Source: Escherichia coli
GTDB taxonomy: Bacteria; Pseudomonadota; Gammaproteobacteria; Enterobacterales; Enterobacteriaceae
Length of the DNA: 64,000 bases
Assembly: GCF_016026235.1 (NCBI RefSeq)
Contig: NZ_CP065613.1
Reading direction: 5' to 3' (one strand)
Shown here: positions 33,701-35,337 of the stretch, piece by piece
Numbering within the stretch: position 1 is the first letter of the stretch
Layout of the letters: the number at the start of each line of letters is the position of its first letter
The notes under the pieces: model-generated
Told to the model about the DNA's origin: nothing
The model's database searches: none
The model's input: only the letters and a program-made list of their open reading frames with translations
Made by a program: the position numbers and the translations under genes

Positions 33701-35337
33701 GAGACGGTTAACAAATAACGGCTCGGTTTATCGGCGGCGGGGAGATTTAACGCCACATGACCGCTGGCGTCGGACACCGTTTCGCTGCCTTCCAGCGACA
33801 CGGGGAAACGTCCGGCATAACGCAAATCGTTACCGACCATTGATAATTGCTGAGCGCGCAAACTTAACTGCACGCGGGCATTTTTTACCGGCTCGCCATC
33901 CGGGTAGAGCAGTTGCAGTTTGCCGCTGACCGCTTCGCCAGTTTTGAACTCTTTTTTGTCGAGAGCTAAACCAATCTCGAAATGTGGCTTGATGTAGTTT
34001 GCCACGCGAAAACTGCTGCTATAGACCTGATTGCGGTAAGCAAGACGTAACTCATAACCTCCGGCAACGGCATTTTCTGGCAGGCGGAAACTTCCCTGCC
34101 CGCCATTGCGCGCATCCAGCGTGACATCGACGGTTTGCAACAGACTGCCGTTAGCGTCCAGCACCGAAAGCTTCGCCGGGGCGCTGACGATGGGGGATGA
34201 ATGCAACGGATCGTGGAACTCGCGGCCCATCACTTTAACATCGACACGATCGCCTGCGCGATATAGCGGGCGATCGGTAAAAATATACAAGCGGGTGTTG
34301 TAGATTTCGCTTTCGTAGAAGAAGTTCTCGGAGACAAAAACACCGCCTTCAGCATCCTTACCCAGAATGTATGAACGTTCTGGCGATATATGTTGTAACT
34401 GCAAGGTACCGCTGTCATCGGTCACACCGCGGGTCATCACGCCAAGACCGTCAGTCCAAAAGATCTCTGAGCCGGGCTTCGCTTCACCCTGTTTTTTACC
34501 CGCGGTCCACACCAGAAGCTCGTTGCCTGACACTTTGCTAAGCGCCACGGTATTAGAGACAAACACCACCGTCGTCGCCCGATACCCACCTACCATCGCC
34601 TCGACGAGGTACAGTCCCGGCTCTTGCTTGCCTAGCGGAATATAGATGTTACCCGGCTGCGGCGAGATGAAATTGCTGGATGCGCCTTCCAGTTTTACCC
34701 CTTGCTGCGGCTCGACCGGTTTAGCCTGCCATAATGGGTAACGGAACTGTTCCACCAGGGGATATTTTTTCAGCGGTGAAAACTGGTTGTTCTGTACATA
34801 ACGGGAAGGTTTAATAATGGCATTGCCGAGCTGTAATTCGGGTAACGCCTGAGTCACATTCTGCCTTGACTGAGAAGAGAAAGTACGCTGCATCACGCGG
34901 CGAGATTTGCCGTACCAGTTATCCCACAGCCAGGTCAGCGTATTGTTCAGCCCGTCGCCCAGATATTGCGGTTGCACCACAATGCGATGCAGGTTTTTCT
35001 GCTGGCGCAAAAATGCCATCGGGTCAGGAATACGATACAGGCGAACGTCCACGCCGCCGTACTCTTCCATCTGATAGCGCCGATAATCACGCCCCGGAGC
35101 TTCCAGTCGCACTTTCGCCTCTTCACTGCTGCTAAAACTGCTGTCAGCGAGCAAAAAGAATGTTCCCCCGGCGGGCAGCGCATAGTTGCTGGAAGGAAGC
35201 GAATCATCAGCATTAGCAAGCCCTGTTCCCACAAGAGACAGGGACAAGCACGCTGCTATCGCGCCAGAAAATTTAAACGATAAATGCCAATGAAATTGGG
35301 ATTGGAATCGTTGGGTATCCATCGGGTGTCCTTCCAT
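30718..35337 (-). CDS. yfaS: Alpha-2-macroglobulin-family protein YfaS, intact 1539-aa ORF, no thioester motif
   Basis: Uninterrupted 1539-aa ORF with N-terminal signal-like segment; only two Cys and no CxEQ; start codon uncertain (Met1 or Met6). Confidence 0.85.

Follow-up and report, generated by a model that had tools for sequence, protein, structure and literature searches.

The yfaT-yfaS junction

We analysed a stretch of Escherichia coli DNA of 64,000 nucleotides (nt) (RefSeq assembly GCF_016026235.1, contig NZ_CP065613.1; hereafter the window), and in it the junction between yfaT and yfaS, two neighbouring genes of a macroglobulin operon on the minus strand. An earlier note on this DNA had described the two genes as overlapping by about 65-82 bp in different frames. 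The overlap was confirmed, and its length is exactly 82 nt if yfaS starts at the first methionine codon of its open reading frame (ORF; Met1) and exactly 67 nt if it starts at the second in-frame ATG (Met6), the yfaT stop codon being counted. Junction positions are counted from the base that directly follows the yfaT stop (0 = 35255), which places the two ATGs at -82 and -67. We consider it probable, from the sequence comparisons below, that yfaS starts at the ATG at 35322, 67 nt inside yfaT, by Shine-Dalgarno (SD)-driven initiation within a dual-coding region. The features concerned are:

35256..35879, minus strand: yfaT coding sequence (207 amino acids), ATG at 35879, stop TAG 35258..35256; DUF1175/MagC family, NlpC/P60-like
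30718..35337, minus strand: yfaS ORF, with in-frame ATGs at 35337..35335 (Met1) and 35322..35320 (Met6)
30718..35322, minus strand: yfaS coding sequence as proposed (1534 amino acids plus stop); type II bacterial alpha-2-macroglobulin, MagD homologue
35256..35322, minus strand: putative dual-coding region of 67 nt, in which the last 21 yfaT codons and their stop coincide with the first 22 yfaS codons
35320..35322, minus strand: ATG -67, the proposed yfaS start, formed by the yfaT codons CGA-TGG (Arg-Trp)
35329..35335, minus strand: SD-like GGAAGGA inside the yfaT codons Trp-Lys-Asp, separated from the ATG by a 6-nt spacer (35323..35328)
35313..35352, minus strand: near-invariant block of 40 nt (-97 to -58), GCAACAACTTATGACATGGAAGGACACCCGATGGATACCC, read as the yfaS translation-initiation region
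35335..35337, minus strand: ATG -82 (Met1), an unlikely start without SD
35257..35259, minus strand: ATA -4, the positional counterpart of the ATG in the orthologues' ATGA; E. coli has ATAG
35230..35232, minus strand: GTG +23, the yfaS start in RefSeq as called by the Prokaryotic Genome Annotation Pipeline (PGAP); 1504-amino-acid product without signal peptide
35209..35322, minus strand: predicted signal peptide of 38 residues, ending in ANA and cleaved before DDSLPSSNY

Relative to yfaT, yfaS is read in the -1 frame: its codons begin on the third base of yfaT codons, and the frame is open from 35376. The earlier note had the yfaS ORF opening at 35337 or 35322, upstream of the yfaT stop at 35256, and these coordinates are right. 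It is also supported that the YfaT C-terminus and the YfaS N-terminus share the same DNA, the end of YfaT being the conserved end of the DUF1175/MagC family. The yfaT ORF (35256..35906) is open up to a GTG at 35906, and its product matches the DUF1175 profile from position 20 to 225 of 226 (Pfam, E = 1e-57) as well as P. aeruginosa MagC (PDB 7BK8, E = 1.8e-103), in an alignment that reaches the last residues of the chain. The YfaT C-terminus is near-invariant, and homologues from Pseudomonas, Serratia, Aeromonas, and Salmonella end level with it; the C-terminal pattern ...NPNFIGxYRLxFLxx has the same end point in 17 aligned homologues and in PDB 7BK8. Judged from these alignments, the 3' end of yfaT is real coding sequence and not an extension from a lost stop or a frameshift. 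The junction is also nearly uniform within the species, 5132 of 5380 E. coli genomes matching a 130-nt segment of it at 99% identity or more.

Signal peptide and start codons of yfaS

The part of YfaS encoded in the overlap comprises the n-region and the beginning of the h-region of the predicted signal peptide. After -67 and before the mature protein the only canonical start codons are TTG 35247 (+8) and GTG 35232 (+23). Both lie inside the hydrophobic core and would leave 13 or 8 residues before the cleavage site, and consequently no signal peptide. A yfaS start further upstream is needed because these nearer canonical starts cut into the signal peptide. The earlier note had required a start at or before about 35280, and this holds: the hydrophobic core begins at 35271, with its sole flanking lysine at 35274..35272. 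The cleavage site is followed by a [DE][DE]xxPxSxY motif in all orthologues, and MagD, the YfaS orthologue, is periplasmic and dependent on its signal peptide (PMC3735191).

Tat and lipoprotein signals were considered for YfaS and rejected, neither motif being conserved. The Tat motif S/T-R-R-x-F-L-K is not found directly before the core: E. coli has TQRF, and the TRR of Pseudomonas lies 10-35 residues before the core. YfaS residues 22-25, IAAC (35248..35259, minus strand), fit the lipobox pattern [LVI][ASTVI][GAS]C, but this is probably a chance match; Escherichia sp. E1V33 has Tyr in place of Cys25, and other genera lack the Cys.

SD strength was estimated as the duplex energy with the 3' end of 16S rRNA, and ATG -67 (35322) is the sole candidate with an SD (-5.5 kcal/mol). 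The energies are +0.7 kcal/mol for ATG -82 (35337), -1.5 for ATA -4 (35259), -1.5 for TTG +8 (35247), and +0.6 for GTG +23 (35232). The SD positions are conserved at 95-100% across the orthologous loci described below.

Conservation of the proposed internal start

Conservation of both frames in orthologous loci had been named in the earlier note as a way to check the overlap. We fetched 80 orthologous loci, from Escherichia spp., Superficieibacter, Enterobacillus, Yersinia, Edaphovirga, and approximately 70 Pseudomonas, which together with the window make 81. Loci from Salmonella, Aeromonas, a P. aeruginosa-like contig, and eight more distant relatives were added separately. The ATG at -67 and the open yfaS frame were found in 81/81 close loci, from Escherichia to Pseudomonas. 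The ATG is also present in Salmonella, Aeromonas, and the P. aeruginosa-like locus, and in Salmonella and Aeromonas the open frame was confirmed along with it. To estimate the chance expectation, the YfaT protein was held fixed and synonymous codons were resampled with each locus's own usage. For E. coli no stop interrupted the yfaS frame between 35322 and the yfaT stop in 16% of resamplings, and an ATG appeared at 35322 in 4.4%; both occurred jointly in 0.65% for E. coli and in 1.3% on average over loci. The open frame and the ATG exceed the chance expectation given the YfaT protein.

The 40-nt block from -97 to -58 is 85-100% identical at each position in all loci, save for one synonymous site at 65%, and synonymous sites outside it vary freely in yfaT. 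The minimum of synonymous-codon entropy in yfaT falls at codons -34 to -15, with 0.20-0.27 bits versus a mean of 0.77; among 53 non-redundant loci, 0 of 200,000 permutations were as low. Several of the codons fixed here are otherwise uncommon, as measured against the rest of yfaT in Pseudomonas:

CGA (Arg -22): 81/81 at this position; 1.3% of Arg codons in the rest of Pseudomonas yfaT
ACA (Thr -27): 71/71 Thr codons at this position; baseline 4.1% in the rest of Pseudomonas yfaT
ATA (Ile -20): 75/81 at this position; baseline 0.26% in the rest of Pseudomonas yfaT
CAA (Gln -30): 81/81 at this position; baseline 19% in the rest of Pseudomonas yfaT; 53/81 at the other, adjacent Gln codon
CCC (Pro -19): 80/81 at this position; baseline 31% in the rest of Pseudomonas yfaT
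AAG (Lys -25): 79/79 at this position; baseline 64% in the rest of Pseudomonas yfaT

The codons ACA, ATA, and CCC next to CGA are thus fixed at 93-100% at their positions. The block spans roughly -30 to +9 around the ATG, and this extent is the footprint expected of an initiation region, as which we read it. The CCC at Pro -19 gives Arg4 of YfaS, where CCG would give Gly and CCT a stop; because the fixed CCC preserves this residue, it suggests that the yfaS frame is translated at the block. The putative start and ribosome-binding site are, on this comparison, conserved beyond the demands of the YfaT protein.

Among the more distant relatives, three at approximately 50% identity (L085, L087, and L091) have an ATG or GTG at -67, SD-like motifs (GGGAGGA, GGAAGGA, or GGAGAGA), and a hydrophobic core starting inside the overlap. 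Three others at the same identity (L086, L089, and L090) have no ATG or GTG at -67 (TTG in L086 and L090, CTG in L089) and no SD; they start at -4 or +5, and L086 and L089 have in-frame stops inside the overlap. Relatives at 34-38% identity (L094 and L095) have ordinary short junctions. Only the clade with the WxDTRW motif shows the predicted overlap arrangement.

The earlier note had left open whether yfaS starts at Met1 or at Met6. Met6 (35322) is favoured because it has both an SD and conservation and Met1 has neither. Aeromonas and three Pseudomonas loci have CTG at -82. Salmonella has a TGA in frame two codons after -82 and before -67, which makes -67 the first ATG there.

A second putative start and its repeated loss

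At -4, 68/81 loci have ATG, most Pseudomonas among them, 8 have ATA, and 5 have CTG. In the 68 loci the yfaT stop TGA is preceded by an A, yielding an ATGA overlap that is followed by a full signal peptide; a start at or near the upstream stop, as needed for termination-reinitiation, is therefore present there. In E. coli the nearest canonical starts lie at -67 and +8. The A of ATGA is a rare-codon choice (CGA or CAA), so that the ATGA start also looks selected. ATA at -4 occurs in four Escherichia, two Superficieibacter, P. flavescens, and one Pseudomonas metagenome-assembled genome, and in Salmonella as well. In 11/81 loci, representing at least 5 lineages, no canonical start lies between -67 and the hydrophobic core, and the core already starts ahead of the yfaT stop in P. 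schmalbachii, P. jinjuensis, and Escherichia. As read from this distribution, the predicted start at -4 is lost repeatedly and that at -67 is never lost in the clade.

Proposed mechanism

We propose that the SD GGAAGGA embedded in yfaT recruits ribosomes for de novo initiation at 35322. On the sequence evidence, such SD-driven initiation is more likely than reinitiation. Termination-reinitiation coupling is nearly abolished at a separation of approximately 20 nt (PMC10666635), and is unlikely here because 67 nt far exceeds this distance. The tight translational coupling that the earlier note had read from the overlap is accordingly not upheld, the ATGA that would serve it being mutated to ATAG in E. 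coli. Ribosomes translating yfaT may still keep the start site unfolded. The overlapped part of YfaS would encode the charged n-region and the first core residues of a cleavable Sec signal peptide, and the dual coding would cost little because the n-region of a signal peptide tolerates almost any sequence.

The initiation region would be ancient, kept base for base from Escherichia to Pseudomonas. Since the alternative starts would all yield an identical mature protein after cleavage, redundancy could arise and one start could be lost. Loss of the ATGA (to ATAG, ATAA, or CTGA) would leave the internal start as the sole usable one in Escherichia, Salmonella, Superficieibacter, and several Pseudomonas lineages. 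With an SD of its own, yfaS could moreover be translated in excess over yfaT, its output being set separately. In P. aeruginosa fractions MagC is reported to have been undetected and MagD abundant, and an excess of the macroglobulin over YfaT would be consistent with these amounts. The internal start would then be a testable control point for the MagC:MagD ratio, one that can be mutated silently in the upstream gene.

More tentatively, the 40-nt block may be the primary ancestral start region of all YfaS/MagD proteins of the clade, P. aeruginosa MagD included, with the accepted MagD start being secondary; we hold this to be possible rather than probable. It would make the block a regulated entry point with an output independent of the upstream genes, possibly via CsrA/RsmA acting on its GGA motifs. 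A literature search found no paper linking PA4489 or PA4490 to an internal RsmA site. The 121-nt region 35270..35390 folds no better than shuffled sequence (z = -0.25), an Rfam search of 34800..36100 was negative up to E = 1, and a consensus scan revealed no internal promoter near the junction.

Alternative explanations

The earlier note had offered a non-canonical yfaS start as the alternative to coupling, and the candidate for it is ATA 35259: ribosomes ending at the yfaT TAG would restart on AUA, the successor of an ancestral AUG, and the functional overlap would be 4 nt. This ATA sits exactly where 68/81 orthologous loci have their ATG, and other junctions of the operon suit termination-reinitiation (ATGA at yfaA-yfaT in K-12, and downstream gaps of 0 nt and 4 nt). 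AUA is, however, a very poor initiator in E. coli, the site has no SD, and its product would lack a charged n-region. The independent losses of the -4 ATG in several lineages, with -67 retained throughout, further mark the -4 start as the dispensable one, and we regard initiation at the ATA as unlikely. It is very unlikely, in our judgement, that there is no overlap at all and that yfaS starts at GTG 35232, as in RefSeq, or at TTG 35247, the upstream ATGs being by-products of the YfaT sequence. GTG 35232 is the PGAP call in three RefSeq E. coli records inspected, and a survey of 338 genomes attributed every co-directional overlap above 60 nt to misannotation, usually a downstream gene extended at its 5' end (PMC2478687). 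Against this, the GTG product lacks a signal peptide although its orthologue MagD is periplasmic, and the GTG has no SD and is unconserved even within Escherichia, with none in E. albertii. The fixation of rare codons around -67 would also be left unexplained. Least probable of all is a start at Met1 with an 82-nt overlap, alone or together with Met6. No ATG precedes Met1 in the open frame, and in most loci Met1 is formed via the rare ACA; the missing SD, the CTG of Aeromonas and three Pseudomonas loci, and the early TGA of Salmonella all speak against it.

A different kind of explanation is that the 40-nt block is another RNA-level signal (a rare-codon pause, a CsrA/RsmA site, or an RNA processing site) and that E. 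coli yfaS is poorly translated or decaying. CGA, ATA, ACA, and CAA are rare codons, and the block has three GGA motifs within 22 nt (35313..35352, minus strand). Within it, ACAUGGAAG fits CANGGANG, which we take to be the core of RsmA/CsrA sites, as a candidate regulator site overlapping the SD. The mag operon is under RsmA control. K-12 yfaS carries a stop codon and yfaA in the window an amber codon, as would fit decay. Common codons in the block are nevertheless fixed just as firmly as rare ones (ACC in 79/81 loci, besides AAG and CCC), which points to specific nucleotides and to Arg4 of YfaS rather than to rarity. The lack of RNA structure and of an Rfam match likewise disfavours such a signal. 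The yfaS frame of 1534 codons is intact in the window, and over the approximately 3 kb of fetched flanks it is open from its start in other Escherichia species, Salmonella, and Superficieibacter, which all have ATA at -4 too. A CsrA site over the SD would be compatible with initiation at 35322, not opposed to it. We therefore find it highly improbable that the block is such a signal in place of a start. A programmed -1 frameshift producing a YfaT-YfaS fusion was also considered and rejected, the heptamer being found only in Escherichia and Salmonella and outside the conserved block. The slippery heptamer in question, T TTA AAT (35271..35277, minus strand), is in phase with yfaT 13 nt before the stop, and its position reads T TTA AAC in Salmonella and A CTG AAC in Pseudomonas. 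No significant structure was predicted in 35270..35390, a region that ends approximately 1 nt 3' of the heptamer; further downstream, inspected by eye only, there is a weak 6-bp stem approximately 28 nt away.

Several points weigh against initiation at 35322. The SD is weakened to GGAATGA in Salmonella. The predicted signal peptide was read heuristically (n-, h-, and c-regions and the AxA rule) and not with a trained predictor, and with 38 residues, 17 of them in an n-region of net charge approximately +1, it is longer than typical. The conservation at the nucleotide level could reflect some other RNA-level function that coincides with the ATG. In P. aeruginosa a MagD(1-64)-mCherry fusion reached the periplasm (PMC3735191); the signal peptide there is that of the ATG at +26 and is exported, so the internal start is not needed for export in that species. 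The literature search yielded no profiling or precursor N-terminus data on the yfaS/magD start in any species. Taken together with the conserved SD and ATG, we still regard the start at 35322 as probable, and yfaT-yfaS is very probably, as judged from the conserved sequence, a rare genuine long co-directional overlap (>60 nt).

The operon in the window

The genes on the minus strand follow in the order yfaA, yfaT, yfaS, yfaQ, yfaP, in the region between rcsC and gyrA:

35909..37564, minus strand: yfaA (DUF2138), upstream operon gene, ended in the window by a premature TAG
29068..30717, minus strand: yfaQ (DUF2300), downstream operon gene
28287..29063, minus strand: yfaP (DUF2135), downstream operon gene

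The junctions of yfaQ and yfaP with their neighbours are gaps of 0 nt and 4 nt. The partners match the set of type II macroglobulin operons, namely DUF2138 (MagB-like), DUF1175 (MagC), DUF2300 (MagE-like), and DUF2135 (MagA/F-like), with one DUF2135 gene in the E. coli operon and not two, and the gene order agrees with that in other loci consulted. YfaS itself matches the Pfam domains MG2 (E = 1.7e-26), A2M_BRD (4.5e-18), A2M (3.6e-12), and bMG10 (4e-6), and no CxEQ thioester motif was found in its 1534 residues. NCBIfam has no model for YfaS or YfaT and gave no help on the choice of start, and the N-terminal 300 residues of YfaS had no sequence match in the PDB.

The window locus is 98.5% identical to K-12 MG1655, without gaps, and the window strain is not K-12. 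In K-12 MG1655 yfaS is a pseudogene owing to a single in-frame stop at codon 1368, which is Trp in the window, and there is no frameshift; in the window all 1534 codons are intact. The yfaA gene of the window has TAG at 35909..35911 (minus strand), where K-12 and strain 19SZHZ869Rt have TGG (Trp). It is thereby 11 codons shorter at its 3' end, and its usual ATGA overlap with the yfaT start (35879) has become a 30-nt gap, so that translation of yfaT may be uncoupled from yfaA in this strain.

Annotation and comparison with known systems

The bare overlap is not new, since it is present in the curated annotation of K-12 MG1655. There yfaS (b4500; 2329798..2334402) and yfaT (b2229; 2334336..2334959) have the same start and the same 67-nt overlap (2334336..2334402). 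K-12 differs in that its yfaS is a pseudogene, and PGAP-annotated genomes disagree with the curated start. Gene callers placed the start 17-41 nt after the yfaT stop in the RefSeq E. coli records (L001-L003), in Salmonella (L092), and in two metagenomic loci (L085 and L087), which removes the signal peptide; in Aeromonas the caller chose -67. Because the junction is near-identical throughout the species, the PGAP call of the three inspected records is probably repeated in most E. coli genomes, and a periplasmic macroglobulin would be predicted as cytoplasmic. The literature found on yfaS in E. coli consisted of gene lists only, and our search found no published discussion or evidence of the overlap and no account of its deep conservation, its rare-codon signature, its dual-start history, or its mis-annotation by pipelines. 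The case for yfaT-yfaS is well supported and modestly novel.

The orthologous junction is magC-magD of the P. aeruginosa magABCDEF operon (PMC3735191, PMC5764988). MagD and YfaS share the lack of CxEQ and a Sec-type signal peptide, and the 40-nt block CAACAACTCATGACATGGAAGGACACCCGATGG, the SD, and the -67 ATG are also present in the P. aeruginosa-like locus. In that locus (L096:3541-3740) in-frame MagD ATGs stand at -82, -67, -4, and +26, of which -4 was taken by the gene caller. MagD is accepted to start 26 nt after the magC stop, with a signal peptide of 26 residues (AAVQA|EDT), and the junction has not been described as an overlap. P. aeruginosa thus has this start and an ATGA start, whereas E. 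coli has neither downstream start and an operon of five genes instead of six. ATGA overlaps of the termination-reinitiation type (PMC10666635) are found at this same junction in 68/81 loci and at yfaA-yfaT of K-12. With its ATAG, E. coli differs from these systems: the coupled start is gone, and the one that remains precedes the stop by 67 nt.

Among the 338 genomes surveyed, every real co-directional overlap stayed within 60 nt, and holD-rimI, with up to 56 nt, was the longest (PMC2478687). yfaT-yfaS resembles that case in being co-directional, in the conservation of both frames across genera, and in having a putative start and SD inside the upstream gene. It differs in being longer (67 nt), in being conserved across gammaproteobacterial orders, and in that the overlapped part of the downstream product is a predicted cleaved signal peptide. 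The last point suggests why the overlap is tolerated, the dual-coded part being a cleaved and loosely constrained n-region. If the block should prove to be the ancestral start region of the clade, yfaT-yfaS would be the longest conserved genuine co-directional overlap documented in bacteria, one that has been systematically annotated away.

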